This document shows, piece by piece, positions 301 to 25,513 of a stretch of 64,000 bases of DNA. The notes beneath the pieces are model-generated. The model was given only the letters and a program-made list of their open reading frames with translations. It was not told the origin of the DNA and made no database searches. Both the position numbers and the translations under genes were made by a program. How positions within the stretch are numbered: position 1 is the stretch's first letter; each line of letters begins with the position of its first letter. The DNA lies in IMG/VR virus record IMGVR_UViG_3300020176_000008, positions 32,608-96,607 of that record, one strand, 5' to 3'. The stretch is from a virus.

Positions 301-498
301 ATGGGACCAGTGAGTGGATATTTCTCAGAACCAGGTACGTTAAACAGGACTAGCGAAGTCTTCGATAACATGGATGGTTCATATGTTGTTATGATGTATG
401 AAGGAACTGATCTTCGCGAAGAGCGAATCATTGAAGGACATACATTGGATTATGCAGAAGACTGCGCAGAAAATTGGGTATTAGGAGTTATTAAATGA
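301..498 (+). CDS. Hypothetical protein
   Basis: GGAG RBS upstream, stop overlaps next start. Confidence 0.6.
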   Translation: MGPVSGYFSEPGTLNRTSEVFDNMDGSYVVMMYEGTDLREERIIEGHTLDYAEDCAENWVLGVIK

Positions 499-917
499 GT
501 GTGAATTTGATTGAAGATATGGCGCATATGCACGACCACTATGGAGTACATACTGCAATTGAGAAGTTAACTGCAGAACAGTTAAAAACGTTCCTTAAAT
601 TTCGTATTGACTTTTTGCAAGAAGAGTTGGATGAGATGAATAAGGCTTATAATGAGGGCGGTGAAAGTGCAGCTGATGATACAGTTGATGCTTTGATTGA
701 TTTGGCTGTGGTTGCATTGGGTACACTTGATGCATTCCGAGTGAATGGTTATGAAGCATGGAACCGTGTTTATAAAGCAAATATGTCCAAAGTTGTTGGT
801 ATTAAAGAAAGTCGTCCTAATCCTCTAGGACTTCCAGACTTGATCAAGCCAGAAGGTTGGACTGCTCCGACTCATGTAGATAATGTTGGTTTATTGGAAC
901 AGGTATTTACAAAATGA
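495..917 (+). CDS. MazG-like / all-alpha NTP pyrophosphohydrolase
   Basis: EELDE...VDALIDLAVVALG...AWNRVYKANMSK...KPEGW motifs. Confidence 0.8.
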   Translation: MSVNLIEDMAHMHDHYGVHTAIEKLTAEQLKTFLKFRIDFLQEELDEMNKAYNEGGESAADDTVDALIDLAVVALGTLDAFRVNGYEAWNRVYKANMSKVVGIKESRPNPLGLPDLIKPEGWTAPTHVDNVGLLEQVFTK

Positions 918-1885
918 TTGGTTTCACGGTTTTCAAATCTATCTTTGATAACAAGACTGACGTAAGTGTCGACTTTGATAGCTTCGATAAGTTTGAAACT
1001 GCTTTATACCACTTGGCAACTAAGCCAGGTTATAAAGCACGGAAAGGCGAGTATACCCCGAAAGGGGTTACTCCTTCTCCGCTGATATCTCCTGCAGTTT
1101 ACAAAGAAGGAACCACCCGCGCCAACGCTAATGTAATTAAGTGGGCAGGTTGGGCCGCGGTAGATGTCGACCAAGCAGTGTTTGAGGGAAATCTAAAAGA
1201 CGAGTTGCAGAAACGTTATGGTAACTGGCGTTATGTTTGTTATTCTACCGCCAGTAGTACGAATGAGCATCCTAAGTTTAGACTCGTCTTCCCTCTCTCC
1301 AGAGATATTCAGTCGAATGAAATCCGTCACTTCTGGTTTGCACTCAATACAGAACTTGAGTCAATTGGAGATCTACAAACAAAAGATCTTAGTAGAATGT
1401 ATTATGTTCCTGCTAAGTATCCTAATGCCAATAATTTCATTTTTAGTAATCCTGGCACTAATATTGAAGTAGATAGTCTTTTAGCAAAGCACGAGTATAC
1501 GGAACGTACTGGAGATTCTTTCATGGATCGTCTACCAGAGTCTATGCAGAAAGAAGTGGTTGCATATCGCCAGAATAAACTTCGCGAGAGTTCACGAAGT
1601 TTCCATTGGACTTCATACTCAGATTGCCCATTCATTAATCATCGTTTGATCGGTGATTATAAGGCAATTGCACGTACCGATGGTTCTGGTAGATACTCTA
1701 TGATTTACAAGATCATGACGTCGATTGCATGTAATGCGGTTCGTCAAGGTTATGCAATCACAGAGTCTGAAATCTCCCAATTGATCCTCCAGTTAGATCG
1801 TGAGACCAGTAATATATACCAAAAACGACCATTGACCACAGAAGCTTCCAGAGCCATAGAATACGCATACAAAACTGCAATGTAA
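914..1885 (+). CDS. Primase/polymerase-like (AEP/PrimPol-type) protein
   Basis: AVDVD acidic motif, YSTASSTNEHPKFRLVFPLSR, DLSRMYYVP. Confidence 0.55.
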   Translation: MIGFTVFKSIFDNKTDVSVDFDSFDKFETALYHLATKPGYKARKGEYTPKGVTPSPLISPAVYKEGTTRANANVIKWAGWAAVDVDQAVFEGNLKDELQKRYGNWRYVCYSTASSTNEHPKFRLVFPLSRDIQSNEIRHFWFALNTELESIGDLQTKDLSRMYYVPAKYPNANNFIFSNPGTNIEVDSLLAKHEYTERTGDSFMDRLPESMQKEVVAYRQNKLRESSRSFHWTSYSDCPFINHRLIGDYKAIARTDGSGRYSMIYKIMTSIACNAVRQGYAITESEISQLILQLDRETSNIYQKRPLTTEASRAIEYAYKTAM

Positions 1886-1929
1886 TACTTTAGTACTATA
1901 TGTACAACAATTCGAACTTATAGTATAAT
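1883..1929 (+). promoter_or_regulatory. Early-type promoter with upstream 16-bp palindrome
   Basis: TAATACTTTAGTACTA (1883-1898), TGTACA (1901-1906), 17 nt, TATAAT (1924-1929). Confidence 0.8.
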
Positions 1930-1935
1930 ATACCT

Positions 1936-2199
1936 ATGATTGACCAAAACAAAGCTGAACAAATCCTCCAAGCACTATTCGACCATGAAGTTATGAGTGA
2001 ACACGATTTAGAAAATTTATCGTTTCTATTATCGTCTTCAGAAGAAACTTTATTAGATTGGTATAGCAAAGTGGATGAAGAAGACTTACGCTATGCTAGC
2101 ACTATTTTGAATATTGCCCATAACTTCTTTAGCGACAATGCCGTGGCGATCGATACTACACAAGCAAATCAGATTTTGAAAAAGTATATGTATGATTGA
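1936..2199 (+). CDS. Hypothetical protein
   Basis: First ORF after promoter, overlaps next start. Confidence 0.6.
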   Translation: MIDQNKAEQILQALFDHEVMSEHDLENLSFLLSSSEETLLDWYSKVDEEDLRYASTILNIAHNFFSDNAVAIDTTQANQILKKYMYD

Positions 2200-2746
2200 A
2201 ATTGCGCAAAAGCTAAAAGACTCCGGAACAGTACGGATCCCCAAAGAAGAGATAGAAGACGATATAGCCTCAATGGCTGTGGCGATCTTTAGTCGTGGTG
2301 CAGATTCTAGAACGCAAGAAGAAGTCTTCCGAGACTGTAAACGTATTGCGATCGAGTTTGCTTTAGTAAAAGTTCTAGGCGGTGAACGTAACCCCAAAGA
2401 GTTTAACTTTAGAGACAAAGACTCGTATATTTGGGACGTTAAGGTTGACGGTAAGAAGTTTGAAGTAAAGCGACATAAAACCGGCGCTAAATACTTTACC
2501 TACTCTGGCAAGAAAATCGGCACATACATCAAAAACTGTATGGACATTGATTATCTAGTCACGGCTTATATGGATGAATCGGATGATAACTATATTATCG
2601 ACTTTGCCATGATTGTGGATTCGAAGAAGTTTGAATTCTATTTTCAGAAAAGTCAGTATAATAGTTCATACTATTACGATCATCGTATAGCGACCAAAAC
2701 CGGCGATTGTGTAGCCTTTGGTCTAAGAGATGCAACAATTTATTAA
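2192..2746 (+). CDS. denB: DenB (endonuclease IV)-like dC-specific nuclease
   Basis: QEEVFRDCKRIAIEF...SYIWDV...FEVKRH...KSQYN parallels T4 DenB (recalled as AEVIERCRIAVYAEF...TYAWDV...VEVKTH...KSNYN); similar length. Confidence 0.65.
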   Translation: MIEIAQKLKDSGTVRIPKEEIEDDIASMAVAIFSRGADSRTQEEVFRDCKRIAIEFALVKVLGGERNPKEFNFRDKDSYIWDVKVDGKKFEVKRHKTGAKYFTYSGKKIGTYIKNCMDIDYLVTAYMDESDDNYIIDFAMIVDSKKFEFYFQKSQYNSSYYYDHRIATKTGDCVAFGLRDATIY

Positions 2747-2755
2747 GAGGTGAAC

Positions 2756-3112
2756 ATGACACAATATACACGAGCATCAGCAAATATTCTTCTTGAGGCA
2801 GCAGAACTTCAAGAACGTAAAGGATTAGATTATAATAATCCCAATTCCTCAGTACAACAAGCAGACTATTATCCGCGTGGAGTGTGGTCTGTTATGGATA
2901 TTATTAACGCTAAATATCTTCGCATGGTATCTGTTCTAGAGACTATGGAACAAGGCGGGAAAGCTAACTTTGAATCTATTGAAGATTCTGCATTAGATTT
3001 GATTAATTATGCATCGTTCCTTGCAGCATATATGCGTGGGCAGATTCCAGGTCAAGATGTGTCAAAGAAAGATATATTTGGCCGCAAAGTGATTAAAGGA
3101 GAAAATAAATGA
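2756..3112 (+). CDS. Nucleotide-modification-associated helical domain protein (DUF1599/Nmad-like)
   Basis: ERKGLDY...KYLRM...ESIEDSALDLINYA; abuts the thymidylate-synthase-family gene. Confidence 0.55.
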   Translation: MTQYTRASANILLEAAELQERKGLDYNNPNSSVQQADYYPRGVWSVMDIINAKYLRMVSVLETMEQGGKANFESIEDSALDLINYASFLAAYMRGQIPGQDVSKKDIFGRKVIKGENK

Positions 3113-3786
3113 TTCGAGTAGAAGATATACGTACAGAATTTAATAATGCATTACTTGCAGAACAATTTACAGTAGATCGTAATACAGGAGTTCGAACGAT
3201 TGAGTTGTTGAATGCAACCTTTATTGCAGATGAAGATAAAATTTTTGGTACAGTCAATCAAGAATACGTAGAAAAAGAACTGAGCTGGTATCGTTCAATG
3301 TCTCTCAATGTTAATGACATTGAAGGCGGACCACCTGCCGTATGGGCGCAAGTTGCAGATCCAGACGGATTTATTAATTCTAACTATGGATGGTGTATTT
3401 ACTCTGAAGAGAATGGTTATCAGTTTAAACATGTGTTAGAAGAATTAGCACGTGATCCCAATTCTCGACGTGCTAATATGATCTATACTCGTCCTTCAAT
3501 GCATACTGATTATAATAAGAACGGTATGTCCGATTTCATGTGCACAAATAACGTACAATATGTTCTTCGGAATGGCCAACTGCATGCGATGGTGTATATG
3601 CGCAGTAACGATGCAATTTACGGTTATAAGAATGACTACGCATGGCAAAAGTTTGTACAAGCCCAATTGTTAATCGGACTTAATGCACGAACTTCGTCAT
3701 CATATGGTTTAGGCCGTATTATGTGGAATGCTGGTTCTCTGCACATATATGATCGCCACTGGCACTTGATTAAAAAAGAAGCATGA
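3109..3786 (+). CDS. 42: dCMP hydroxymethylase (thymidylate synthase family)
   Basis: INSNYGW, SRRANMIYTRPSM, GMSDFMCTN, MRSNDAIYGYKNDYAWQ, WNAGSLHIY nearly identical to T4 gp42; Asp in KNDYAW is the dCMP-type residue. Confidence 0.92.
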   Translation: MIRVEDIRTEFNNALLAEQFTVDRNTGVRTIELLNATFIADEDKIFGTVNQEYVEKELSWYRSMSLNVNDIEGGPPAVWAQVADPDGFINSNYGWCIYSEENGYQFKHVLEELARDPNSRRANMIYTRPSMHTDYNKNGMSDFMCTNNVQYVLRNGQLHAMVYMRSNDAIYGYKNDYAWQKFVQAQLLIGLNARTSSSYGLGRIMWNAGSLHIYDRHWHLIKKEA

Positions 3787-4238
3787 ATTCGAAACGACAA
3801 ACAAATAAATGGAATAACAGATATATTTCATTAGCCAAGGAAATTTCTGCTTGGAGTAAAGATCCAAGCAGAAAGATTGGTGCAGTTGCAATTGGAGAAA
3901 AGGGACAAGTTTTGTCTCAGGGATATAACGGATTTCCCCGTGGAATATTTGATTATGAATCTCGGTACTCGAACAGAGAGACTAAATATCAATACGTAGT
4001 TCACGCTGAAATGAATTGCATTTATAATGCAACTTATAACGGAGTATCTTTGGCAGACTCTTCTCTTTTTGTGTGGGGATTGCCTGCATGTTCTGAGTGT
4101 GCTAAAGGGATCATTCAAGTAGGTATTAAGAAAGTTTACTGGTCTACTGATGAAGTGATTCCTGATATATGGGAAAAATCGTTAAAGCTTTCTGAAAATA
4201 TGTTTAAAGAATCAGGCGTAGATATTATTAAGTTATGA
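3783..4238 (+). CDS. cd: dCMP deaminase
   Basis: SKDPSRKIGAV, GYNGFPRG, VVHAEMN, PACSECAK zinc motifs. Confidence 0.93.
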   Translation: MNSKRQTNKWNNRYISLAKEISAWSKDPSRKIGAVAIGEKGQVLSQGYNGFPRGIFDYESRYSNRETKYQYVVHAEMNCIYNATYNGVSLADSSLFVWGLPACSECAKGIIQVGIKKVYWSTDEVIPDIWEKSLKLSENMFKESGVDIIKL

Positions 4239-5386
4239 ACATTGAACCAACCAAACATTATGAAGAGTATCTGCGATACTTTGAGTTAGCCACTAAACAA
4301 CAAGAACTTTGTAACTTTGGTTGGTTACCTCATAGTGAGTCGAACATGGGTGATAGCCTAATGGAAAACGTTGAGCTATACGATGTGGTAGAACGTAAGT
4401 ACGCAGGATTCTCTCAGATCATCAACGATTGCTTTTACGGTTGGACTGAAGAACACCCATACTGGAAAAAGATGGAAAGTGGCAATGCCACCATCCAACG
4501 TCAAATTGTTGCTAAAGACTGGACTGGAAAACATTCAGACTTTAAATTGGCGGAATGGCTCTATCTATTCATTTTACATCGTGTAACTGGTTCTGCAATT
4601 AACTACGCAACTAAACCATCAGGCTATCATAATACTATTATTTTCCATCTTCATGAATGTCGGACCATTGAAGATATGACGAGGATCGTGAGGATCTATC
4701 ACAAGCCTTTCTATACTTCGGTTGGATACCAGTTTCCGGCATTCCCTAAACCACCAGAAGGTGGTGATTACAAACGAGGCGGTGATTACTACCTCTGTGA
4801 ATATGCTCCACGACTTGCACGTGAAATGGCTGAATGGTTGGAAAAAGGTGGTAAGCGAGATCTACGTGAACTAGGTGGGTTTATGCTCGATTGGAATAAG
4901 AAGAATGGTTTGCGCCAATACTTCTTTCAGTACGCAGCAACAGTTGCAGATATTGCCGATTGGTTCCCTCAGTATGTAAATCGCGACTCTATGTTCTACT
5001 ACGGAACCAATGCTCGTGAATGTATTTCTTATTTGGCAACTCCAACCAAGAAGATGAATCAGGACCAATTCCTTGATGAGGTCATGCAACAAATCTACTT
5101 GGATACAGGATCGTTTCCATATAATGCAGAAGACGTGTGTTGTGATTACATCCGATGGGTAGAGAACTATATTCGACCTGGAGCAGCGTATAACCATTTG
5201 GACTTTGATAAGGTGTGGTCTTCATGCAAGATTAAAGATCATCCATTTGGTAGACAAGAGGCTATGTTACAATTAGGATTGGTAGATACATTCAATGGTA
5301 TCACTAAACACCCATCCGATGATTATATTATTAAGAAGGCCGGTTTAACGGTAGAAGAATACAAAGCAAAATGTCAAAGCCTGTAA
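4235..5386 (+). CDS. Putative aGPT-Pplase / amino-acid:DNA transferase-like base-hypermodification enzyme
   Basis: D.L....LYDVVERK, LFILHR and AEDVCCDYIRW resemble the family motifs (DPIL...FCNV.R, ILFR, IEH.LCE..KY); translationally coupled in the modification operon. Confidence 0.5.
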   Translation: MNIEPTKHYEEYLRYFELATKQQELCNFGWLPHSESNMGDSLMENVELYDVVERKYAGFSQIINDCFYGWTEEHPYWKKMESGNATIQRQIVAKDWTGKHSDFKLAEWLYLFILHRVTGSAINYATKPSGYHNTIIFHLHECRTIEDMTRIVRIYHKPFYTSVGYQFPAFPKPPEGGDYKRGGDYYLCEYAPRLAREMAEWLEKGGKRDLRELGGFMLDWNKKNGLRQYFFQYAATVADIADWFPQYVNRDSMFYYGTNARECISYLATPTKKMNQDQFLDEVMQQIYLDTGSFPYNAEDVCCDYIRWVENYIRPGAAYNHLDFDKVWSSCKIKDHPFGRQEAMLQLGLVDTFNGITKHPSDDYIIKKAGLTVEEYKAKCQSL

Positions 5387-6366
5387 TTACAAATCCTATT
5401 AGCAATATTCCCAAGCTTGCAAACTCCCACGTACGGGGATGGTCACAGGTGTGGGCGGAACAGCTTAACGCTGAAGTGGATCATAAGTGTTCCACCAACA
5501 TACTTAACGGATCGTTAGTGTACATCGAGCATGGTGTAAACTTTGGTGGAACACTTAATCTATTTGGCGGTGCGGGCCAAGATATTTTTGAGAAAATCGA
5601 TCGTGTTATGCAATGTAAGAATGTTGTATCACTAGATTTCGACATGCCCAATTGGGGTGAACAACTGCGTAAACGTATCGGAAATGCAACTACATATGAT
5701 GGAATCACTGAAAAGTGGTGTGATATGCTATCTAGTTGGTGTACATCAAACGTACCATCTCTAAAGCAAGAAAATATCGATTGGCTCAATGACATTTCGG
5801 TGGGTGACAGTCATACTCCTGCTTTTTCTCAGGCAAATGATGTGGTGTTACGTACTAACGGCAAAACATTGTTTGGTACATTAAAGAACGGTCTTAAGAA
5901 TGAATTCCGTGGAATGACACCTAAAGGACAGATCACATTTAGTCTTGGTTCCATTGATATCCGTCATCACTTGCTTCGTCATGACGATAATCTAGATAAT
6001 ATGATATCAGAGTATGTTGCACAAGGCCAGGAACTTGAGCGTGAATATGGGGTGGATGTATATTACGGAGCACCAGTGCCTGTCGAATATGAGGATAGGA
6101 AGCTTCCTAAGTCTGGATATTTCAAAGGTACTCCATTTTTTGGATCACGTGATGATCGGATCCGACTTACGCTTAGGTTTATTGAACTACTAAATACACA
6201 TAGTGGAAACAAGGTTATAATGCCCCCAGAGGAGTGGTACCATATGGATGGTGAGAAGTATGCCAAGATGCATATGGAAGCCAGTTCTAGTGTTCATATA
6301 TCGCCAGAGTATTATAGGCGATATAATTGGGGCAAACAAGACTCCCTCGAGGGGTTTTTCAATTAA
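5371..6366 (+). CDS. SGNH/GDSL-like hydrolase or acyltransferase
   Basis: VGDSHT (block I), LGSIDIR (block III-like), SSVHISP (block V-like). Confidence 0.45.
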   Translation: MSKPVITNPISNIPKLANSHVRGWSQVWAEQLNAEVDHKCSTNILNGSLVYIEHGVNFGGTLNLFGGAGQDIFEKIDRVMQCKNVVSLDFDMPNWGEQLRKRIGNATTYDGITEKWCDMLSSWCTSNVPSLKQENIDWLNDISVGDSHTPAFSQANDVVLRTNGKTLFGTLKNGLKNEFRGMTPKGQITFSLGSIDIRHHLLRHDDNLDNMISEYVAQGQELEREYGVDVYYGAPVPVEYEDRKLPKSGYFKGTPFFGSRDDRIRLTLRFIELLNTHSGNKVIMPPEEWYHMDGEKYAKMHMEASSSVHISPEYYRRYNWGKQDSLEGFFN

Positions 6367-6370: not shown

Positions 6371-6394
6371 AGGGACCACTAGGTCCCTTTTTTT
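6371..6394 (+). terminator. Rho-independent terminator
   Basis: AGGGACC-ACTA-GGTCCCT followed by T tract. Confidence 0.9.
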
Positions 6395-6427: not shown

Positions 6428-7171
6428 ATGGCCGCTCAACAAGGCTTCCAATACGAAATAAATGCAAGTAATATGCTTAAACCAATGGGCTTCGTGCCTA
6501 AATCGTTTAAGCCTGCAGGCGCTGGTCATGACCAGCCTGACTTAATGCTCTTGCATAAAAAGAAAGAAGCCGGGTGTGAGCTTAAGATTACTGCTGCATC
6601 AGCAGGTTCATTGGTCATAAAATACGATTCTAAAGATAAGAGAAACCCTTGGAAGTTCGGTGATATTAAAGCCGACGAGGATGAGAAAAGGTTCATTGCT
6701 GATCTTGCTAAAGAGGTTAAGTTGTTTGACCTTATCAAAAAGCAATGGAAAGAAAAACCGTATAAAAGAGATAAAGACGTTGAATGGAATGCAACTGCTG
6801 GTAAGATGACTCCTAAACAAAGATATGAAAGAGATCGTGATACCTTTGCCGATATCCGTGGTGAAATTCCTGCAACGAAAATAGAGCAGTATTATAATCG
6901 TAAAGATACACACTATGTCAATGTTGGCACGCATGGTTTCTATTTAATGGGAAAGGCAAACCCTCTGAAATTAAAAGGTGTTCCTACATTCGGTGCTTCT
7001 GCAAAGGCTACGTATAGAGCCCGTGTTCAATACAAGGGCTCTGGAAATTATCAGTTTACGTTTGAAATGCAATTTAGTATGAAATCTAAATCTCCATACA
7101 ACATTGCTCCAGTTGATGGAAAGAGCGTTACTATTTTAAAAGATAAATTAAACCTGGGATGTTTTGTATAA
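6428..7171 (+). CDS. PD-(D/E)XK nuclease-like protein
   Basis: QPDLML...GCELK catalytic-type motif with an upstream Glu (FQYE). Confidence 0.5.
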   Translation: MAAQQGFQYEINASNMLKPMGFVPKSFKPAGAGHDQPDLMLLHKKKEAGCELKITAASAGSLVIKYDSKDKRNPWKFGDIKADEDEKRFIADLAKEVKLFDLIKKQWKEKPYKRDKDVEWNATAGKMTPKQRYERDRDTFADIRGEIPATKIEQYYNRKDTHYVNVGTHGFYLMGKANPLKLKGVPTFGASAKATYRARVQYKGSGNYQFTFEMQFSMKSKSPYNIAPVDGKSVTILKDKLNLGCFV

Positions 7172-8122
7172 ATGAAAAACTTTATAGACTTTTTAACTGA
7201 AGCCTCTGGTAGTTCTTCTAATGAACACTTTGGCGTTGCATATGAAACTGCAACAGCGATGCATTTGCATCATATGACTGGTTCTAAGACTAACAACGAT
7301 CCAGAACATAAAAAACGAATGCAAGAGATTGGATCGAAGGGTAAAGCTGCTTTTGACAAGCTTCCTGATCATCTAAAGAGTCGTGCTTTGCAATCAGCTA
7401 AAGCATCCGCCGAGTCTTATATTGAAAGTCTTAAAAAGAATCACAAGATTAATCCTGCTGATATTCATGAAGTTCATCATACTTCAAAGGGAATCGATCA
7501 TTTGATTAATGCTAAAGCTGATCGTATTCAAAACCCGCATGACGTTGTTGTTAAGACTAAAGATGGAAAACTACATGGAGCGTCTTTAAAGGCAACGCAA
7601 GGTACTCTAAGTAATAACGGTATCGGTACTTTCGACAGTCAGAATAAAGGTCATATTAAAACTGAGGTTGGCTCTATATGGGCAAAAGGTAAAAAGAAAG
7701 CCGGCTTAGAAGGCAAGAGCGGAGCAGAAATTAAAGCCGTACGTAATGATCCTAAAGTAAAAGCTGCAAATAAAGAAACACAGGCAGAGGCTGCAGCACA
7801 CCATAGTAAACAGTTCAACAAGGCTTCTATTGAAGATCAACGTAAGCATCTACGTTATATTATGAAATCTGAAAAACCTGCAGTACCATATGACTACGTC
7901 AATGGAGAAAAGAACAAGTCAGTTCCTAGCCATCAACTTGATCACGCTCAAGCTATTGAGAAGTCTAAGAAGTTTGAAATGCGTCATACCGCCGGAAGTA
8001 ATCTAGTTAAGATCCACGACGACGAAGGTAGACACGTGGCAACAGTTGAACACAGACCGACTCATGGTGCATTCTCTGGAGTACAAGTTAATACTAAAAT
8101 TGGTACTATGAAGGCAAGTTAA
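7172..8122 (+). CDS. Putative internal head protein with restriction-endonuclease-like motif
   Basis: N-terminus MKNFIDFLTE (capsid-targeting-like); YETATA...PHDVVV...ASLK. Confidence 0.45.
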   Translation: MKNFIDFLTEASGSSSNEHFGVAYETATAMHLHHMTGSKTNNDPEHKKRMQEIGSKGKAAFDKLPDHLKSRALQSAKASAESYIESLKKNHKINPADIHEVHHTSKGIDHLINAKADRIQNPHDVVVKTKDGKLHGASLKATQGTLSNNGIGTFDSQNKGHIKTEVGSIWAKGKKKAGLEGKSGAEIKAVRNDPKVKAANKETQAEAAAHHSKQFNKASIEDQRKHLRYIMKSEKPAVPYDYVNGEKNKSVPSHQLDHAQAIEKSKKFEMRHTAGSNLVKIHDDEGRHVATVEHRPTHGAFSGVQVNTKIGTMKAS

Positions 8123-8174: not shown

Positions 8175-9407
8175 ATGTTAAAGCTTAAAGAATTCATCGC
8201 CGAAGAAAAGAACACCCACATGGAACACGTTGAGGATATGATCTTCAATGAAGGAGTTGAGGGTGCACGTAAATCTATTTTATTCTTACGCGATCTTCGC
8301 GACATGTTAGCCGGCAGTTCTACATCTAAAGTTACTGCAACGGTAAAATGGGATGGTGCTCCGGCCGTTTTTGCTGGCGTAGATCCAAGAGATGGTAAAT
8401 TCTTTGTTGCAAAGAAAGGCGTATTCAATAAATCGCCTAAGGTATATAAGACTGCGGCAGAAATTGATGCAGATACTTCGGGAGATCTTGCGGCAAAATT
8501 AAAGATCGCATTGATAGAATTCTCAAAGTTGGGCGTAAAAGAAGGTGTGTTCCAAGGTGATTTGATGTTCACCAAGAACGATCTTAAGAAAGAAAATATC
8601 GATGGACAGGATTATATAACCTTCCATCCAAATACTATTGTCTATGCTGTTCCGTATAATAGTGAACTAGGCAAGAAGATTAGAGGTTCAAAGATCGGTG
8701 TTGTTTGGCATACGACGTATTCCGGAAAAACATTCGAGACTATGAAAGCAAGTTTTGGTAAAACTATAGTTGACAAGTTAAACGAGGTCCAATCCGTTTG
8801 GATGGACGATGCTAATTATAGAGATTATTCTGGCACAGCGACGTTCACGAAAGCTGAGACAGATAGAGTCACTGCAGTTTTATCGAGTGCCGGGAAGTTA
8901 TTTGGGTCAATCAGCGCGCAAACCCTAAACGCAATCTCACGAGATGCAGATCTATTAGCTGCTGTGAAGACCTACAATAACTCCAAAGTTCGTAATGCAG
9001 AAAAAATCACAAACACAAAAGCACACGTAGAAGGTCTATACCATTATATCTATGACAGGTATCAGGGTATGATTGACCGTAGAAAGACAGAAGCTGGAAA
9101 AAATAAACAAGAAGACGCTCGCAAGAAAGTTCTTCAGTTCTTTGCCCATCACGACAAGAATCAGATTGTAGCCATATTCGATTTGATGAATCTGATTGTT
9201 GAAGCCAAACAGATGATTATCGATAAGATGAATAAAGCTGGTCACATAAATACTTTCTTAAGGACTGCAAACGGTTTTAAAGTAACTGGAGTCGAAGGAT
9301 TCGTTGCAATAGACCACCTATCTGGCGGTGCAGTTAAAATTGTAGATCGTATGGAATTTAGTAAAGCTAACTTTTCAGCTGATATTATCAAGGGATGGCA
9401 GAGATGA
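8175..9407 (+). CDS. DUF6267-like protein with ligase-type nucleotidyltransferase motifs
   Basis: KNTHMEHVED, TVKWDGAP (KxDG), FQGDLMF, VEGFVA, VKIVDR; N-terminus MLKLKEFIAE. Confidence 0.6.
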   Translation: MLKLKEFIAEEKNTHMEHVEDMIFNEGVEGARKSILFLRDLRDMLAGSSTSKVTATVKWDGAPAVFAGVDPRDGKFFVAKKGVFNKSPKVYKTAAEIDADTSGDLAAKLKIALIEFSKLGVKEGVFQGDLMFTKNDLKKENIDGQDYITFHPNTIVYAVPYNSELGKKIRGSKIGVVWHTTYSGKTFETMKASFGKTIVDKLNEVQSVWMDDANYRDYSGTATFTKAETDRVTAVLSSAGKLFGSISAQTLNAISRDADLLAAVKTYNNSKVRNAEKITNTKAHVEGLYHYIYDRYQGMIDRRKTEAGKNKQEDARKKVLQFFAHHDKNQIVAIFDLMNLIVEAKQMIIDKMNKAGHINTFLRTANGFKVTGVEGFVAIDHLSGGAVKIVDRMEFSKANFSADIIKGWQR

Positions 9408-11699: not shown

Positions 11700-13343
11700 A
11701 TGAAAAGATATAAGCAACTCATAAAAGAATTGCCGTCAAAAAAGGTTGTGTTCGCATTCGGCAGGTTTCAGCCTCCGACGAATGGTCACGCACTTTTAGT
11801 CAATGCGGTAACTAAGTTGGCATCTGCTCAGAAGGCAGATCATGTCATTTACACATCCCGTACTCAAGACAAAAAATCAAATCCACTTCCAGCTAACCGC
11901 AAGGTATATTATCTTAAGCGGATGTTTCCCCATGCCAAATTCATGGCGGCAACCGATAACATGCGCACATTCATGGAAGTGGCTGCCGAGTTATCTAAGA
12001 AGTATAAGCATCTCGTAATGATTGCTGGCTCGGATAGAGTTGCTGAATATAAGAAACTATTAGATAAGTATAACGGAACCACATTCAACTTTGAAACTAT
12101 CGAAGTTGTTTCTGCCGGAGAGCGTGATCCAGACTCGGATACTGCATCGGGAATGTCTGGTACTAAGATGCGTGAAGCTGCCAAGAAAGGTAACTTTGCC
12201 GCGTTTAAGAAAGGTCTGCCACATGGTATTACTGAGTTAGATGCTAAACGTCTAATGAATGAAATCCGTGAAGGTATGGGTATCGATGCTATTAAAGAAT
12301 CTATCCAGTTCGAAAGAGATACAATTAGAGAATCATACCATTCTGGCAATATCTTCAACGTAGGAGATAAGGTACTATTTGAGGAGCAGGTATGCGAGAT
12401 CGTGAAACGTGGATCTAACCATGTTTTAATCCAATTGCAGGATGGGTCATTGGAAAGTAAATGGCTAAATCAAGTACAAGTATTTGAAGATGTGGCACAA
12501 GAAGTCACCGAGGAAATAAACGAAATGAAATATACCGCATCTGACAAAATTAAAGTCGCAAGAGTAATTGCAATGTCTCTCGGCTTAGAAGAACCTACTA
12601 GTAATAATCCGGAACTTCTTGTCAATACTGCATTACGTAGAATCAAGAATAAGACATTTTCTGCCCGCGGAAAAGAAATCGTTGCCAACATGCTAGATGT
12701 TGCAAAAGAAGCCGGAATCAAATATGATGAGAAGCTTGCCGTGGCATTTAAGCAATCTGAGGTAGATGAAGAAGTTGTTGGAAAGTCATTGCACTGCGGT
12801 GATAATTCAGTGCGCGTCTTGAAAATTAAGCATCATCTTGGAGAAGAAGCAGATGATGATGAAGAAGAGGAAGAAATGTCCGACGATGATTTGGATAAAG
12901 TAGCCGATTCAATGAATGACGATCATATGCTTCACGGATATGACGACGAAGAATTAGATATCATCGATGACGAAACTGGCGAGAAGGTCGACGAACTCAA
13001 AGAAGAAACTTTGAATGAAGTATTAAGCCGTCAAGAAAGAATCAAGTCTAAGATCAGGTTTGCTCGTACCAAGAGTAAGCGTGAACGTAGATTGCGAATC
13101 GCATTAAAAACTAGATCGTCTGTTAAGAAGGTAAATACTAGAGCTAGACGATTAGCAGTTAAAGCTTTAAAGATGCGAATTGCTAAAAGACCTTTAAACA
13201 AATTGTCTGTCGGTGAAAAAGAAAGACTAGAAAAAATAGTACAAAAGCGTAAATCTGTTATCAATAGATTAGCTATGCGTATGGTACCTAAAGTACGCAA
13301 GTATGAAAACGATCGTTTGGTTCATAGTACTTATACTAAATAA
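11700..13343 (+). CDS. Cytidylyltransferase-like (HIGH-superfamily) nucleotidyltransferase with long C-terminal extension
   Basis: FGRFQPPTNGH, IAGSDR, AGERDPD, MSGTKMR; acidic stretch then basic helical tail. Confidence 0.75.
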   Translation: MKRYKQLIKELPSKKVVFAFGRFQPPTNGHALLVNAVTKLASAQKADHVIYTSRTQDKKSNPLPANRKVYYLKRMFPHAKFMAATDNMRTFMEVAAELSKKYKHLVMIAGSDRVAEYKKLLDKYNGTTFNFETIEVVSAGERDPDSDTASGMSGTKMREAAKKGNFAAFKKGLPHGITELDAKRLMNEIREGMGIDAIKESIQFERDTIRESYHSGNIFNVGDKVLFEEQVCEIVKRGSNHVLIQLQDGSLESKWLNQVQVFEDVAQEVTEEINEMKYTASDKIKVARVIAMSLGLEEPTSNNPELLVNTALRRIKNKTFSARGKEIVANMLDVAKEAGIKYDEKLAVAFKQSEVDEEVVGKSLHCGDNSVRVLKIKHHLGEEADDDEEEEEMSDDDLDKVADSMNDDHMLHGYDDEELDIIDDETGEKVDELKEETLNEVLSRQERIKSKIRFARTKSKRERRLRIALKTRSSVKKVNTRARRLAVKALKMRIAKRPLNKLSVGEKERLEKIVQKRKSVINRLAMRMVPKVRKYENDRLVHSTYTK

Positions 13344-13400: not shown

Positions 13401-13856
13401 ATGGACGAATTAACAAAATCACTTAACAAATGTCTGGCAAATACGTTCATAATGTATTTCAAAACACATTCATACCATTGGAATGTGGAAGGTATTCACT
13501 TTAGTCAGTATCATAAATTCTTCGGTGATCTATACGAAGAAGTCCATGGTGCCGTAGACACTATTGCAGAAAAGATTCGTATCGAAGGTCCATATGCTCC
13601 AATTAGTCTGAGCGAATTGTATAATAATGCTACACTAGAAGAAGACAAAGAAAAGCCACAGACGTGTTACGCCATGGTTGTTAGCACATATGCTGCAAAT
13701 GCATCTGTTATTGGTTGTTTACAAGAAGCGTTTGATATGGCTAATCAAATGAACAAACAAGGACTTGCTGATTTCTTGGCAGGTCGTTTAGATATCCATA
13801 AGAAGCACGAATGGATGCTTCGTGTTTCAATGAAGTTAAATGAAGGGGAAATGTAA
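13401..13856 (+). CDS. dps: Dps/ferritin-like protein
   Basis: KTHSYHWNVEG...YHKFFGDLYEE...DTIAEKIR...HKKHEWML ferroxidase motifs. Confidence 0.9.
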   Translation: MDELTKSLNKCLANTFIMYFKTHSYHWNVEGIHFSQYHKFFGDLYEEVHGAVDTIAEKIRIEGPYAPISLSELYNNATLEEDKEKPQTCYAMVVSTYAANASVIGCLQEAFDMANQMNKQGLADFLAGRLDIHKKHEWMLRVSMKLNEGEM

Positions 13857-15349: not shown

Positions 15350-15706
15350 ATGAATTTTAAATTGACTGATGACAACTTCATCCTGTATGCTATGAAGCAC
15401 TATGATAATACACAGTGCCATAGTGTACAGGAATTTGAAGAAGATTTACGAAGGTTTCTCTATTTGAAGAAACTTTTCAGGCGGTATTCGGAGGGCGAAC
15501 TTAGAGAGCGATTGATTCTAAACCATCTAATAGTATTGTATAATATTTTTGGAGAGTGTTTAAATGAAATGCTGCTATTCAAAGTCGACAAAGAACACTG
15601 GCCGGCATTAAAGACTTTCATGGTATACTTAGGTAGACTAGAAGAGTCGGAACTAACAGACGTCACTTTAGATCAGAACATAGTAAGTATATTAAGGAAA
15701 ATTTAA
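15350..15706 (+). CDS. Conserved T4-like hypothetical protein
   Basis: NFILYAMKHYDN...EFEEDL...LILNHLIVLYNIFG. Confidence 0.7.
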   Translation: MNFKLTDDNFILYAMKHYDNTQCHSVQEFEEDLRRFLYLKKLFRRYSEGELRERLILNHLIVLYNIFGECLNEMLLFKVDKEHWPALKTFMVYLGRLEESELTDVTLDQNIVSILRKI

Positions 15707-16251
15707 TGAATTCCACAACTGACAATTTAATTGCATTCAGGGTCTTATATATGTTGGTCACTCCATTTGAGAAGACTGATGCGTATAAGTTCGGAATCAT
15801 CGACAAAGATGGTAATGCGTTAAAGAAGGTTAAAGATTTAGATGACTCTGAAGAAAGAGATTCGTATACTGCGTTACATAGATTAGTTTTTAATCTTAAA
15901 AAATTATTAGGTAAAGTTCCAGGTGGAAAAACTAAGTTTGCTTCTGTAATGGCAGCATATTGGTTGATTAAAGAAAATCTAAATGTACGTACATCAATTA
16001 AAGAACATGAGTTGATTGAAACTATTCATGCAATAGAATCTAAAAACTTATGCATGGTTGAAGAAGAATTGGATTTTGCTGATTTAATAAAAAATATTGA
16101 CCCACTTGAAGAAGATGCTGTAGCAGCTATCGCTAATGTGGTTGGTGATGGCACTGCTACATCTGTTGATTATCCAGCAATAAAACCTAAGAAAAAGAAA
16201 ACCCTAAAATTATTCCGCAGACAGAAGGATGGAGAATATGAAAAAGTTTAA
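15706..16251 (+). CDS. Conserved T4-like hypothetical protein
   Basis: TPFEKTDAYKFGIIDKDG...LVFNLKKLL. Confidence 0.7.
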   Translation: MNSTTDNLIAFRVLYMLVTPFEKTDAYKFGIIDKDGNALKKVKDLDDSEERDSYTALHRLVFNLKKLLGKVPGGKTKFASVMAAYWLIKENLNVRTSIKEHELIETIHAIESKNLCMVEEELDFADLIKNIDPLEEDAVAAIANVVGDGTATSVDYPAIKPKKKKTLKLFRRQKDGEYEKV

Positions 16252-17449
16252 TCAATTTATGACAGAAGCTATTGCCGAATCGGATGCTGCGTGGGCTGCC
16301 GCTGAAGCAAAGCGCAAGGAGCAAGAAGCCAAAAAAGCTTTAACTAAAAAGGATGCTAGCACTGTCGACAAGATTCGTGCTATGATGGCTAAAGAGAAAA
16401 TGAAGGAAGAAGTCGAGATTGAAGAAGCAAATACTCCTTCTGATGCTGATTTACATAAGACGCTTGGCCCTACCAAGAATATGCAGCAAGGAGTTGATGC
16501 TTTAAAGAAAAAGCATGGAATGTCTGATGATGAGGCTAAAAAACATGTTCGTAGATTGATGGGTATGAAAGAAGAAGCTGATCAGATTGACGAGTTAAGC
16601 AAAGGTACATTGCGTTCTTACATAGATAAGAAGTCGGATGATCATGAGTCCAATAGACAGGGTGTGATTGATGCACGTGATGCTCTACGCCAGCACAACA
16701 GGAACAGACCTTCCCTTGATGCACCTCTTAAACATCAATTTGACCATGACGCTAAGAAACGTGAACTAGAGAAAGATGTCAATGCTGCATCAAGAACTGC
16801 TACACGTTCAAATGTAAACATTCTTAAAGCAAAGAAACGTTTGAATAAAGAAGAAGTTACAATGAATGAAGCAAAAGACAAACAAGAGTATGGCTACGAA
16901 GGTGCCATGGCTATGACTCAATTAAAGACATTAACCCGTCATGGTGAACATATGATGGGTATGATGAAAGAAGATACAGATCTTCCGGAATGGGTTCAGT
17001 CAAAGATTACTCTAGCAACTGACTATGTTCAAACCGCTCATGATTATTTAATGAGCGAAATGAATGAAGAGCTGTCAAAATCAGCAGAACAAATTGATGA
17101 ATTGAGCAAGTCTACATTAGGTTCATACGTTAGAAAAGCATCCGGCAATGCGGCATCTGCTACTCGTGCTGCTGGCGTAGAAGCTGGTGCACGAGGACCA
17201 AACCGGTTTGCTAATATGGACTCTAAAGAAAAACGTGCTGAAAAGAGACTAAGTGGTGTATCTAAAGCAGTTGATCGTTTGGCTAAAGAAGATATGCATA
17301 CTGATAAGAAGGAAGATCCTCCTTTTGATGGTCCATATTCTAAAAAGAAAGTTGCTACTCCAGGTAAACAGGGTTATGGCATGTCAGCAGCTCGTCATCT
17401 AGCACGTCAAGCTTTACAAAAAGTTGCAGACAAACAAAAGAATAAGTAA
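16238..17449 (+). CDS. Putative internal head protein with repeated IDELSKxTLxSY motif
   Basis: GGAG RBS, MKKFNQFMTE; QIDELSKGTLRSY and QIDELSKSTLGSY. Confidence 0.55.
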   Translation: MKKFNQFMTEAIAESDAAWAAAEAKRKEQEAKKALTKKDASTVDKIRAMMAKEKMKEEVEIEEANTPSDADLHKTLGPTKNMQQGVDALKKKHGMSDDEAKKHVRRLMGMKEEADQIDELSKGTLRSYIDKKSDDHESNRQGVIDARDALRQHNRNRPSLDAPLKHQFDHDAKKRELEKDVNAASRTATRSNVNILKAKKRLNKEEVTMNEAKDKQEYGYEGAMAMTQLKTLTRHGEHMMGMMKEDTDLPEWVQSKITLATDYVQTAHDYLMSEMNEELSKSAEQIDELSKSTLGSYVRKASGNAASATRAAGVEAGARGPNRFANMDSKEKRAEKRLSGVSKAVDRLAKEDMHTDKKEDPPFDGPYSKKKVATPGKQGYGMSAARHLARQALQKVADKQKNK

Positions 17450-17919
17450 TGGGAATCACTGCAGCTATCCGTGCTATCGCTATTCTTGTAATAGTCGTTA
17501 TCATAGCGGCGGCAGGTTGGTATGTAACATCTCTCAAGGCCGATCTTGCGGTTAGCCTTGAGAATACCAAGAAAATGACCGATGCCGTTCAGGCACAACA
17601 AGAGTTAATCACGCAAATACGTATAGAGCAAGAAGCTATTAGTAAGATTAATAGTGAACTAACCGGCGTGATTAAAGCACAACAAGAAGATATGAATTCC
17701 TTACGTGATAGGTTCAACACCTCTGCGGATGGAAGCAAGCGTGATTTTGGAAAACTAGCTGCAGAAAAACCTGCACTGGTAGAAAAATCTATTAATACTG
17801 GAACCAAGAATGCTTTACGATGTATAGAGTTAGCATCTGGTTCACCTTTGACTGAAGGCGAGAAAAATGGCACTGAGACTAATAAGGAATGTCCTTCTTT
17901 ACTCACTAGTAGTAACTAG
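17449..17919 (+). CDS. Inner-membrane spanin (Rz-like)
   Basis: N-terminal TM helix, coiled coil, C-terminal Cys; overlaps a lipoprotein gene. Confidence 0.65.
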   Translation: MGITAAIRAIAILVIVVIIAAAGWYVTSLKADLAVSLENTKKMTDAVQAQQELITQIRIEQEAISKINSELTGVIKAQQEDMNSLRDRFNTSADGSKRDFGKLAAEKPALVEKSINTGTKNALRCIELASGSPLTEGEKNGTETNKECPSLLTSSN

Positions 17920-18262
17920 CAGCGGTTGTGCATTCTTGCCATCTTTTGGTAAAGAAAATATTAAACCGGTAGAGATACAAACTAAGGCAGTCGATAAGAC
18001 TCCTCTCAACATTGATAATCCTTTACCTATAAATACTAATACAATCAAGTGGTTGATTGTAACACCTGACAATGTAAATGAAGCTTTTGCTAATTTAGAA
18101 GGCAATAAAGTATTATTCGCTATAACGGATGACGGTTATCAGGATCTATCGATGTTGATGGCAGAAATTAGAAATTTCATTAACGCTCAACGCGTTATAA
18201 TAATCAAGTATAAAGAATACTACGAGCCTAAAGCGGGGATTCAAGATGGCGTTGGAAACTGA
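17867..18262 (+). CDS. Outer-membrane spanin lipoprotein (Rz1-like)
   Basis: Signal peptide with lipobox SSG-C; Pro-rich; overlaps Rz-like gene. Confidence 0.65.
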   Translation: MALRLIRNVLLYSLVVTSSGCAFLPSFGKENIKPVEIQTKAVDKTPLNIDNPLPINTNTIKWLIVTPDNVNEAFANLEGNKVLFAITDDGYQDLSMLMAEIRNFINAQRVIIIKYKEYYEPKAGIQDGVGN

Positions 18263-18680
18263 ACTAGAAGTACTTAAGAGTGTGGTTGGAAAACTAGACT
18301 CCTCTTTAGAAAAGATATCTGAAGTATCCAATAGTATTGGGAAACTCCTAGCAGTCCATGACGAACGCCTAAATTCTTTAGAAAAGGTCAGTGACAAACG
18401 CGATCGTGAAATCGATGAATTACACTCACGTATCACCACGCAAACACGAGAAATCCTGGAAAAATTGGAATCCATGGAAAAGCGTATCGAAGAACGTATG
18501 AAGCACGCTGCAGTGGTATCAACACAACAACATAATGATATCAAAAATGAAATCCAAGGTGATATGAAAGAAATGGAAGATCGAATTCGTACACTAGAAA
18601 AATGGAAATGGTATATAATGGGTGCTGGAGCAGCCATTGGTTATGCCCTATCCAATCTGATACCCTTAATAAAACCTTAA
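18246..18680 (+). CDS. Coiled-coil protein with C-terminal TM helix (holin-like candidate)
   Basis: Heptads then LEKWKWYIMGAGAAIGYALS. Confidence 0.45.
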   Translation: MALETELEVLKSVVGKLDSSLEKISEVSNSIGKLLAVHDERLNSLEKVSDKRDREIDELHSRITTQTREILEKLESMEKRIEERMKHAAVVSTQQHNDIKNEIQGDMKEMEDRIRTLEKWKWYIMGAGAAIGYALSNLIPLIKP

Positions 18681-18706
18681 AAGTTTATTAAAGAAATATA
18701 TTTTTG

Positions 18707-18730
18707 AATGGGCTTGAAAAAGCCCATTTT
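18707..18730 (+). terminator. Probable terminator
   Basis: AATGGGCT-TGAAAA-AGCCCATT-TT. Confidence 0.6.
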
Positions 18731-18786
18731 CGTCACCAGTTGTCTATATATAGTAGACCACTTGAATACATTTATGGAGAAGCGCA

Positions 18787-19458
18787 GTGCAAGTACGTCT
18801 TATTTCTTATACAAAACCCTCACGTGAACTTATTGAAGAGGGATTATACGATGTTCAGGAACTAGTGGCATATTGTGCCCGTGTTTCTAACCCAGCAAAT
18901 CAGTTTAACACTGAAACCTCAGAAAAATTAATCGGATATCTAATCAAACATGCTCATTGGTCACCTCTTGAGATGGCAAATGCATGTATTGAAATTGATA
19001 CGACACGTGACATTGCTCACCAGATCGTAAGACATCGCTCTTTCTCGTTTCAAGAATTCTCACAGCGTTATGCTAATGTGGGAGAACTTGGTGATATGTT
19101 TACATTTCGTGAAGCTCGTTTACAAGATGCTAAGAATCGCCAAAATTCCGTAGAGACCGAAGACTCAGAATTGAAGCGTGAATGGATGATTCAGCAGAGA
19201 AAAGTTATTGAAGCCGCAGAGAGTGCTTATAAATGGGCAATCGATAACGGTGTTGCAAAAGAACAGGCTCGTGCAGTTCTACCAGAAGGTCTAACGAAAA
19301 CACGAGTATATATGAATGGTACTATTCGCAGCTGGATTCACTATATTCAGTTACGTGCAGCAAATGGTACACAAAAAGAACATATGGAAATTGCTAAGGC
19401 CTGTGCTAAGGTAATTGCCGATATTTTCCCGTTAACCAATACTCTTCTAGAAGAATAA
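18787..19458 (+). CDS. thyX: Flavin-dependent thymidylate synthase
   Basis: HWSPLE, RHRSFSFQEFSQRY, EQARAVLP. Confidence 0.95.
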   Translation: MQVRLISYTKPSRELIEEGLYDVQELVAYCARVSNPANQFNTETSEKLIGYLIKHAHWSPLEMANACIEIDTTRDIAHQIVRHRSFSFQEFSQRYANVGELGDMFTFREARLQDAKNRQNSVETEDSELKREWMIQQRKVIEAAESAYKWAIDNGVAKEQARAVLPEGLTKTRVYMNGTIRSWIHYIQLRAANGTQKEHMEIAKACAKVIADIFPLTNTLLEE

Positions 19459-19459
19459 T

Positions 19460-20020
19460 ATGGCACAACCTAAGTATAATAATACTGCAGACGACTTCGT
19501 TGGCATATATGATAATGCACTAGACGAAGCGGTTATAGAGCATTATGAAAAGATGTTTGCTGAATATGAAAATAGTCAAGGTTGGTATAGACCAGAAGAT
19601 AGACATATTAAAGATGATTTGTCTATCAGCCTAGATCGAAGTCAAGCTGAAGTATTCTTAAATAATTTTTGGCCTAAGTGGGATGATTATGCAAACCAGT
19701 ATTCTACATTAAAAGATTTTGGTCCGCCTATTGTACATGGAGTTAAAATTCAGCGCACTAGACCGGGAGAAGGGTATCATATTTGGCATACTGAGCAAGG
19801 TTCTATCGACTCTGGTAATAGATTCGGAGTCTTTCTTTGGTATATGAATGATGTTGAACAGGGCGGAGAGACTGAATTCTTATACTTAAAAAAGAGAATT
19901 CATGCTATTCGCAATAGATTGGTTATTTGGCCGGCGGGTTATACGCACACGCATAGGGGCAATCCACCACTTAGCAATGATAAGTATATAATCACCGGTT
20001 GGGTTGAATTTTCAAGATAA
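19460..20020 (+). CDS. 2OG-Fe(II) oxygenase
   Basis: YHIWHTE, YMNDVEQGGETEF, WPAGYTHTHRG, KYIITGW. Confidence 0.85.
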   Translation: MAQPKYNNTADDFVGIYDNALDEAVIEHYEKMFAEYENSQGWYRPEDRHIKDDLSISLDRSQAEVFLNNFWPKWDDYANQYSTLKDFGPPIVHGVKIQRTRPGEGYHIWHTEQGSIDSGNRFGVFLWYMNDVEQGGETEFLYLKKRIHAIRNRLVIWPAGYTHTHRGNPPLSNDKYIITGWVEFSR

Positions 20021-20022
20021 TA

Positions 20023-21989: not shown

Positions 21990-21993
21990 AAAT

Positions 21994-22907: not shown

Positions 22908-22908
22908 T

Positions 22909-24059: not shown

Positions 24060-24144
24060 GTTGATCATACATCGCCTCAATACTATTAGGGGGTTGATGA
24101 AACTCTTTGAATAAATACTATATCTAAACAAAAATGGGTATAGT

Positions 24145-25466: not shown

Positions 25467-25513
25467 TTCTTTACTATGATACAATGATATCATGTTTGTT
25501 AATGAGGTGTGAT

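Follow-up and report, generated by a model that had tools for sequence, protein, structure and literature searches.

A gp42-linked phage cassette that may make an undescribed amino-acid-derived cytosine without a DNA kinase

We analysed a 64,000-nucleotide (nt) stretch of virus DNA (the window), part of the 102.5-kb IMG/VR virus record IMGVR_UViG_3300020176_000008, and in it a gene cassette at 495-6366 that probably gives the DNA of this phage a cytosine modification nobody has described. The record is estimated to be 62% complete. The cassette is a run of nine open reading frames (ORFs), all on the + strand and start/stop-coupled: neighbouring ORFs overlap by 4, 8, 4, 4, 4 and 16 nt, one spacer is 3 nt long, and the sole 50-nt gap in the run lies at 1885-1936. 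Five nt past the last stop, an intrinsic-terminator-like hairpin of 7 bp with five G-C pairs, followed by T7 (6371-6388, + strand), closes the operon. A reading made earlier from the letters and translations alone (the sequence-only reading) had described here a terminator-closed operon of a MazG-like pyrophosphatase, a DenB-like nuclease, an Nmad-like domain, gp42, a deoxycytidine monophosphate (dCMP) deaminase, an amino acid:DNA transferase (AADT)-like protein and an SGNH-like protein. ORF calls, family matches and the hairpin place every one of these genes at its expected position, on the + strand and coupled. The list had omitted two further ORFs of the run, a primase-like gene (914-1885) and a gene for 87 amino acids (aa) (1936-2199).

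The gene at 3109-3786 encodes a gp42-type dCMP hydroxymethylase of 225 aa. It is 54.8% identical to T4 gp42 over 221 residues, 57-59% identical to gp42 of many Straboviridae, and it matches the T4 dCMP hydroxymethylase structures 1B49/1B5E with E 9.2e-80. The 'gp42' homologues of phages RB69 and DLP3 make 5-hydroxy-dCMP, and in E. coli ThyA numbering N177D is diagnostic of dCMP, L143D/E of a non-methyl product and D169N of 5-hydroxycytosine (5hoC) synthases (Lee et al., NAR 2026, PMC13326640). The homologue encoded here has C145 as its nucleophile (DFMCTN), D142 (SDFMC) at the L143 position, D168 (RSND) at D169 and D176 (KNDYAW) at N177. As the residue at the ThyA-169 position is Asp and not Asn, this thymidylate synthase (TS) homologue should be a hydroxymethylase rather than a 5hoC synthase, and it is by every available sequence criterion a T4-type 5-hydroxymethyl-dCMP synthase. 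RB69-type 5-hydroxycytosine chemistry was ruled out by the Asp168 diagnostic. The T4 cytosine chassis proposed for the operon is thus upheld by two residues, one Asp specifying dCMP and another that tells hydroxymethylases apart from 5-hydroxy-dCMP synthases.

The other nucleotide genes of the run fit around gp42. We called ORFs in 35 related loci and searched them with the cassette proteins; a block of MazG, primase-like or DenB, Nmad-like, gp42, dCMP deaminase and AADT-like genes recurs among them. The dCMP deaminase (3783-4238, 151 aa; PF00383 E 1.1e-16, phrog_174 E 1e-39) is no pointer to uracil chemistry, because T4 itself encodes a dCMP deaminase and the enzyme belongs to the T4 scheme too. 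A ThyX is present elsewhere in the window and would be the source of dTMP. At the head of the cassette, here and in related loci, stands a MazG-like all-alpha nucleoside triphosphate (NTP) pyrophosphatase (495-917, 140 aa; PF01503 E 1.6e-5, phrog_671 E 5.8e-19), a candidate dCTPase/dUTPase in place of T4 gp56. The 120-aa protein at 2750-3112, read earlier as an Nmad-like domain, is only weakly Nmad1/DUF1599-like (DUF1599 E 0.021) and clearly the C-terminal half of phrog_18404 (residues 164-252, E 4.5e-16), whose N-terminal half, in a family of 264 positions, matches the MazG-like protein. As two halves of one family they are fused in other phages and probably work together, and the 120-aa protein may be a second NTP-pyrophosphatase-like module. 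The DenB-like endonuclease IV homologue (2192-2746, 184 aa; phrog_1360 E 7.5e-9) has homologues at the equivalent position in loci L019-L021 and L025.

At least four NTP-pyrophosphatase-like genes were found in the phage. Outside the window there is a PF18909 dGTP_diPhyd_N gene (E 1e-35) at record positions 22553-22951, ∼10 kb upstream of the window, and a weak MazG match at record positions 31187-31531. The PF18909 gene prompted us to consider a Z-base pathway, which was dropped, as a PurZ/adenylosuccinate-synthetase homologue is absent from both the record and its near-complete relative G001.

Downstream of the deaminase gene, 4235-5386 encodes a 383-aa protein that had been called aGPT-Pplase/AADT-like, and both fold and motif bear this out. 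Its confident predicted model has a helix-hairpin-helix (HhH), DNA-glycosylase-like fold, and against 48,161 PDB chains the top match is the 5-PmdU glycinyltransferase gp46 of PaMx11 (8z2m; PMC11472151), followed by HhH glycosylases; the predicted fold is that of an AADT/HMUDK_hel-like (aGPT-Pplase kind) member of the HhH superfamily. In BFVD, a 68%-identical protein is named 'Amino acid:DNA transferase domain-containing' in UniProt and remoter rows are named 5-hmdU DNA kinase helical domain and Pplase1, and some of the ESM-Atlas neighbours carry PF18723 HMUDK_hel and PF18724 ADDT. The family is metagenomic, large and strongly conserved, with 954 clusters at the 90% identity level (E ≤1e-3; the best 120 are at least 70% identical) and 141 representatives at the 50% level. 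Across 51 sequences reaching down to 22% identity only nine residues are invariant, and these include E299 and C303 of a motif EDVxCD. Clade-2 aGPT-Pplases such as M6 gp51 and ViI gp247 need a conserved Cys and a neighbouring Glu, the Cys being proposed to attack C6 to give an exocyclic methylene (Lee et al., NAR 2021, PMC8989533). M6 gp51 has a similar E-x3-C motif close to its C-terminus, and E299/C303 looks like a parallel to the essential Glu/Cys pair of AADTs.

The assignment is made at the superfamily level only, as Pfam and profiles gave no link to characterised AADTs: the 383-aa protein has zero Pfam matches up to E 10, phmmer and family profile searches against PDB sequences returned nothing, and the family profile had no significant hhalign match to M6 gp51. 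Among 50,697 phage records, neither megablast with the cluster nor tblastn with the 383-aa protein returned a match, indicating that no deposited cultured phage has a close AADT-like homologue. Most relatives have a second, 328-aa gene, an AADT-like paralogue by hhalign (probability 92%, E 6e-7) whose ED-x2-C motif lines up with that of the family. It sits between the AADT-like and SGNH-like genes, for example at 6555-7541 of locus L005, with equivalents in L003, L006-L018, L022 and L026, and is absent from the genome of this record.

The last gene of the run (5371-6366) encodes a 331-aa protein, read earlier as SGNH-like. This holds for its C-terminal domain, while the protein as a whole has two alpha/beta domains (AF2 model, predicted local distance difference test score (pLDDT) 89). 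Three search engines assign the C-domain (∼136-322) to the SGNH/GDSL fold, with a Foldseek probability of 1.00 and SGNH clusters in the Atlas; the protein has zero Pfam matches, including to the Lipase_GDSL models. An alignment of 23 sequences, very divergent and fused members among them, keeps H20, G66, G67, G145-D146-S147-H148, L167, G193, D196, R198, P237, E239, G258, R263, E303 and H309 invariant. GDSH is the block I serine motif. In block III there is no clear GxND and G193-x-x-D196 stands in its place, and in block V the Asp of DxxH is replaced by Ser, with H309 and E303 invariant. The C-domain could thus plausibly hold a Ser/His site flanked by an acidic residue, even though neither GxND nor DxxH is preserved in its canonical form.

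The N-domain (∼1-135) has no confident structural assignment and shows a faint likeness to the N-terminal half of T4 β-glucosyltransferase (BGT). When the relatives G001 and G004 were searched with PF09198, the sole match in each fell inside the N-domain of the 331-aa homologue (E 0.002 and 0.0009 per genome), and PF09198 was the only Pfam family reported for these two homologues (E 0.057 and 0.087; 13-15 bits, sub-threshold). BLASTP (E 0.014) and hhalign of the N-domain family against BGT (P 0.004, probability 9%) both align NLFGG, a motif of the family, with INFFGG of BGT. T4 BGT is not among the top structural matches of the 331-aa model; a Swiss-Prot fold search gave low-TM (template modelling score) RimO rows and one GDSL esterase, with T4 BGT not listed, and an ESM Atlas feature search with the N-domain gave no usable match. 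As the BGT signals are weak and come from one subfamily, they are suggestive only, and so is the N-terminal part of the description of this protein as a chimera of a BGT-N-half-like N-domain and an SGNH-fold C-domain. In T4, b-gt lies directly downstream of gene 42.

Homologues of the two-domain protein also occur in Aeromonas phages 31 and 25 and in Tenacibaculum and Stenotrophomonas phages. In Aeromonas phage 44RR2.8t, the N-terminal ∼330 aa of the 795-aa ORF233c (L001:5998-8385), whose gene adjoins a Na+/solute-symporter-like gene, are homologous to the 331-aa protein (31% identity, E ∼1e-33). We considered the C-terminal 456 aa of ORF233c as an AADT-like fusion partner and rejected this, as hhalign to the AADT-like profile shows no similarity. 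These cultured T4-like Aeromonas phages could make the two-domain enzyme accessible to experiment.

The AADT-like and SGNH-like genes have a regular third companion, a gene for a pyridoxal phosphate (PLP) enzyme. The three occur together in ∼30 loci in at least four gene orders: AADT-like, 328-aa gene, SGNH-like, PLP; AADT-like, PLP, SGNH-like; SGNH-like followed by AADT-like; and an SGNH-AADT fusion gene beside PLP. In the fused proteins P0158 and P0170 (790 and 719 aa) the SGNH-like part is N-terminal and the AADT-like part C-terminal; over the first ∼350 residues they share 31% and 28% identity with the 331-aa protein (E 2e-37 and 6e-39), and their C-terminal parts match the 383-aa protein. 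In the window, the PLP enzyme is a fold-type II protein of 323 aa at 33972-34943 (+ strand; PALP E 7.4e-5). Its homologues adjoin or overlap the SGNH-like or AADT-like gene in ∼25 related loci, and with the gene next to the fusion in L027 it shares 38% identity (E 2e-60). By hhalign, the profile of its family matches M6 gp52, a characterised decarboxylase of DNA-bound C-alpha-glycinylthymine (PMC8989533), over 196 columns with a probability of 90.4% (E 1.4e-6). K65, invariant in 17 sequences, aligns with gp52 K36, the predicted aldimine lysine, and is itself predicted to be the PLP lysine. The gene at 33972-34943 thus appears to be the displaced third member of the conserved trio, and with the PLP gene moved and the 328-aa paralogue absent, the cassette of this phage is a reduced, rearranged variant. 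A complex prediction for the AADT-like and SGNH-like pair scored 0.00, which is evidence neither for nor against binding.

The TS homologues beside two very distant copies of the trio genes (L028 and L039) also carry the dCMP-type Asp at the N177 position, suggesting that the link to cytosine chemistry extends beyond a single clade. L028, the Logan contig with P0170, has the order dCMP deaminase, dUTPase_2, SGNH-AADT fusion, PLP enzyme, a 178-aa P-loop kinase-like gene and a 272-aa TS homologue. Close to the PLP gene of the window lies a full-length phage serine hydroxymethyltransferase (SHMT; 35255-36400, + strand; E 1e-145 among the ORFs of 31532-47458, PLP motif TTTHKTLRG). A putative member of the pathway, it likely provides gp42 and ThyX with methylene-tetrahydrofolate and connects the Ser pool with the Gly pool. 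Between the two genes is a small gene at 34953-35258, and the ORFs of this region include one Cytochrom_C Pfam match.

A search for a hydroxymethyl-base DNA kinase detected no P-loop 5-hydroxymethyluracil (5hmU) DNA kinase (5-HMUDK)-like gene in the record's genome, and no homologue of the M6 gp54 kinase was found in the genome ORFs or the related loci. The cassette proteins have no Walker A motif, nor is there a small Walker-A protein ([AG]x4GK[STG]); the Walker-A proteins found in the genome, which are of replication, packaging or PhoH type or unassigned, are all encoded away from the cassette and its neighbours. A small P-loop kinase-like gene was seen in L028 alone, the distant locus with a fusion; this 178-aa gene could equally be a deoxynucleoside monophosphate kinase. 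For glycosyltransferases, PF09198, PF11440, PF00535 and PF00534 gave no over-threshold match in the 102.5 kb, which agrees with the earlier statement that no glucosyltransferase is in view, in a record that is 62% complete. PF11440 had no match in the record or in G001, and as the control genomes also gave none, this search is uninformative. PF00535 is absent from the record and from G001, which is 99% complete, and a Pfam survey of the ORFs from 9395 to the record end named no glycosyltransferase; for the 32 kb upstream of the window the survey covered the best 25 of 52 matched families. As for a classical glycosyltransferase encoded elsewhere, the possibility that the sequence-only reading had set against its own proposal, these searches found none in the 62%-complete record and one GT-B gene in the relative G001. 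Of the thymine-type pathway, the AADT-like fold and a gp52-like PLP enzyme are present; no DNA kinase was found, which leaves that pathway incomplete.

From the gene identities, folds, motifs, fusion and co-occurrence computed here, we infer chemical steps, their order, a donor and a product. We judge it fairly probable that a three-protein module carries out a post-replicative, kinase-less conversion of 5-hydroxymethylcytosine (5hmC) to an amino-acid-derived base. DNA with 5hmC would be made pre-replicatively: the MazG-like NTPase would remove dCTP, gp42 would turn dCMP into 5-hydroxymethyl-dCMP, the DenB-like nuclease would attack cytosine DNA, and the dCMP deaminase would feed dTMP synthesis. 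The two-domain protein would then replace the 5-hmU DNA kinase, most likely by activating or acylating the 5-hydroxymethyl oxygen, for example through O-acylation that creates a leaving group, or by moving some other group onto it. It is favoured as the activator because the SGNH-AADT fusions mirror 5-HMUDK, in which a catalytic domain is joined to HMUDK_hel. The AADT-like protein would flip the base, form an exocyclic methylene intermediate with Cys303 and Glu299, and add a nucleophile, most likely an amino acid bound via its side chain. Finally, the gp52-like PLP enzyme would decarboxylate or otherwise trim the appended amino acid, leaving an amine-bearing cytosine. As a gp52-type PLP enzyme needs a free alpha-amine and there is no radical-SAM isomerase, the most economical guess is a side-chain-linked amino acid, serine-like as in ViI, that is then decarboxylated to an aminoalkyl ether.

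The undescribed amino-acyl- or amine-substituted cytosine that the sequence-only reading had suggested therefore has in silico support from the fusion, the PLP partner and the dCMP-type Asp near distant copies; the product itself is a prediction. We put forward the complete proposal more tentatively, as something a little short of an even chance: an undescribed cytosine derived from an amino acid, such as one with an aminoethoxymethyl or another amine-bearing group at position 5, made by a kinase-free route in abundant freshwater T4-like phages, with a BGT-acceptor-half/SGNH chimera as activator, an AADT-like Cys/Glu enzyme and a gp52-like finisher. Our literature searches turned up no paper in which an SGNH-fold enzyme is connected with 5hmC hypermodification, and no description of an amino-acid-type adduct on gp42-made 5hmC.

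Several observations weigh against an amino-acid-derived cytosine, and some of them lend themselves to other explanations. The record is incomplete, so that glycosylation or a kinase may be encoded elsewhere, and G001 has one Glycos_transf_1 (GT-B, PF00534) gene, at 38451-38783. The PLP gene lies 28 kb from the cassette in this window and the 328-aa paralogue of most relatives is missing, so this copy could be a reduced or partly decayed version. We know of no SGNH enzyme that acts on DNA bases, and for an SGNH-type activation step no acyl donor was identified. One could accordingly suppose that the DNA holds plain or glycosylated 5hmC as in T4, with a glycosyltransferase in the missing 38% or with the two-domain protein itself as a divergent one, and that the AADT-like, SGNH-like and PLP proteins do something else. 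The G001 gene, the faint BGT-N-half likeness of the N-domain and the position of its gene downstream of gene 42, like T4 b-gt, would all suit this explanation. We nevertheless regard it as unlikely: the C-domain is SGNH by three engines and not a nucleotide-sugar-binding Rossmann domain, the two-domain protein occurs in fusions with an AADT-like domain and is linked to a gp52-like PLP enzyme, a kind that plays no part in glycosylation, the G001 gene is >100 kb from the cassette, and PF11440, in the uninformative search, and PF00535 are absent from both records. Far less likely still is that the trio acts on thymidine precursors (5hmU), as in M6 and ViI, and that it is linked to gp42 only by chance. 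Every AADT and gp52-type enzyme characterised so far does act on 5hmU derivatives (PMC8989533), and a dUMP-making dCMP deaminase is in the operon. The sole ThyA-fold enzyme, however, is dCMP-specific (D176) with dTMP coming from ThyX, no dUMP hydroxymethylase or 5-HMUDK was found, the TS homologues beside three very divergent copies all have the dCMP-type Asp, and T4 too encodes a dCMP deaminase.

Two further explanations concern the AADT-like protein. It could dehydrate 5hmC directly via Cys303/Glu299 and add the nucleophile without prior activation, leaving late tailoring to the SGNH-fold protein (acyl transfer or ester hydrolysis on the appended group). Such a route would need no kinase, in line with the failure to find one; its exocyclic-methylene chemistry would be the hydration step of gp42 reversed, and the PaMx11 product is known to be tailored by an acetyltransferase. 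As hydroxide is a poor leaving group, and as the SGNH-AADT fusion mirrors the 5-HMUDK arrangement of kinase and helical domain and so favours a role in activation, we find this doubtful. It is also conceivable that the HhH protein serves as a DNA glycosylase or binds DNA in anti-defence, with no new base coming from the cassette. In favour of this, the fold scores to AGOG, Ogg and DUF2419 glycosylase-fold proteins lie within ∼1 Z unit of gp46. An invariant Glu-x3-Cys, a fusion, a linkage to a PLP enzyme and a constant place after gp42 and the dCMP deaminase would be unexpected of a repair or defence glycosylase, and we consider this explanation very improbable.

Read as a route from 5hmC to an amino-acid-derived base, the cassette resembles the thymidine pathways of M6, ViI, PaMx11, phiW-14 and SP10, which consist of a 5-HMUDK kinase, a clade-2 aGPT-Pplase (AADT) and a PLP decarboxylase (PMC8989533). 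Common to both are an HhH transferase-like protein with a Glu/Cys pair, a fold-type II PLP enzyme homologous to M6 gp52, clustering with a ThyA-fold hydroxymethylase, an NTP pyrophosphatase and a dCMP deaminase, and a presumed post-replicative logic. Unlike in those pathways, the hydroxymethylase of the cassette is dCMP-specific, so that the substrate base should be 5hmC and not 5hmU; no P-loop DNA kinase was found in the cassette, a BGT-half/SGNH-fold protein, AADT-fused in some phages, standing in its stead; the 383-aa protein matches no Pfam AADT or HMUDK_hel model; and the cassette is without a radical-SAM, FAD or acetyltransferase tailoring gene. With the T4 5hmC pathway, which comprises gp56, gp42, gp1, DenB, cd and the alpha- and beta-glucosyltransferases, it shares a T4-like virion and replication core, a gp42 that is 55% identical with the same active-site residues, a DenB-like nuclease, a dCMP deaminase and a modification gene downstream of gene 42, as b-gt is. 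It differs from T4 in having a MazG-like enzyme for gp56 and in that no alpha- or beta-glucosyltransferase was found, the sole trace of the latter being the sub-threshold N-half likeness in the two-domain protein. The 5-hydroxycytosine arabinosylation of RB69 and DLP3 (PMC13326640) is likewise found in T4-like phages with a gp42 homologue and a non-glucose modification, whereas those enzymes have Asn at the ThyA-169 position and make 5-hydroxy-dCMP; the enzyme here has Asp (D168), as T4 does, and no arabinosyltransferase or nucleoside diphosphate sugar genes were seen. The nearest published idea concerns metavirome clusters with TET and cytosine C5-methyltransferase genes, together with a P-loop kinase and an aG/PT-PPlase, for which 5hmC phosphorylation and further modification were proposed, not demonstrated (Burke et al., PNAS 2021, PMC8256090). 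There, 5hmC arises post-replicatively through methyltransferase and TET and a kinase is present, in contrast to the cassette analysed here, in which it would come pre-replicatively from gp42 and no kinase was found.

Two ORFs of the run have no part in the proposed steps. The 323-aa primase-like protein (914-1885, + strand) matches phrog_9765 'DNA primase' (E 2.3e-53) and is without a Pfam match; it is probably a replication gene though inside the coupled run, and it is syntenic in many relatives, with DenB taking its place in others. The 87-aa ORF (1936-2199, + strand) is without an over-threshold family match. A promoter-like site, TGTACA-N17-TATAAT (1901-1929, + strand; consensus match only), lies in the gap ahead of it. 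Just before the run, a gp41-like helicase gene ends at 269, and the 32 kb upstream of the window encode a T4-like core of gp20 portal, gp23, gp21, gp15, RegA, gp43, UvsX/Y/W, gp45, clamp loader and large terminase, as seen among the best 25 of 52 matched families in a Pfam survey. Past the terminator, the stretches 8175-9407, 11700-13343 and 13401-13856 include a DUF6267 protein (E 5e-109), a 547-aa protein with a cytidylyltransferase-like N-terminus (E 1.7e-5) and a ferritin-like protein. A nucleotide-metabolism block follows at 15350-30311, where the ORFs of the region jointly match both ribonucleotide reductase subunits, ThyX, thioredoxin/glutaredoxin, a 2-oxoglutarate-Fe(II) oxygenase and a class II aldolase, and additionally a DNA ligase, RNase H and a SegE-like GIY-YIG endonuclease.

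All amino-acid and polyamine hypermodifications of phage DNA that we know of are on thymine and begin with a DNA kinase, and all elaborations of phage 5hmC and 5hoC known to us are sugars. If the proposed route is true, it would add a new natural DNA base and, with the SGNH-fold protein, a new class of DNA-acting enzyme. It would also provide new tools for labelling 5hmC, and the base would be a new target or a new evasion route for type IV restriction and glycosylase defences. As the family is large and occurs in environmentally abundant T4-like phages, such a base could be common in freshwater viromes, where it could bias sequencing and restriction-based methods.

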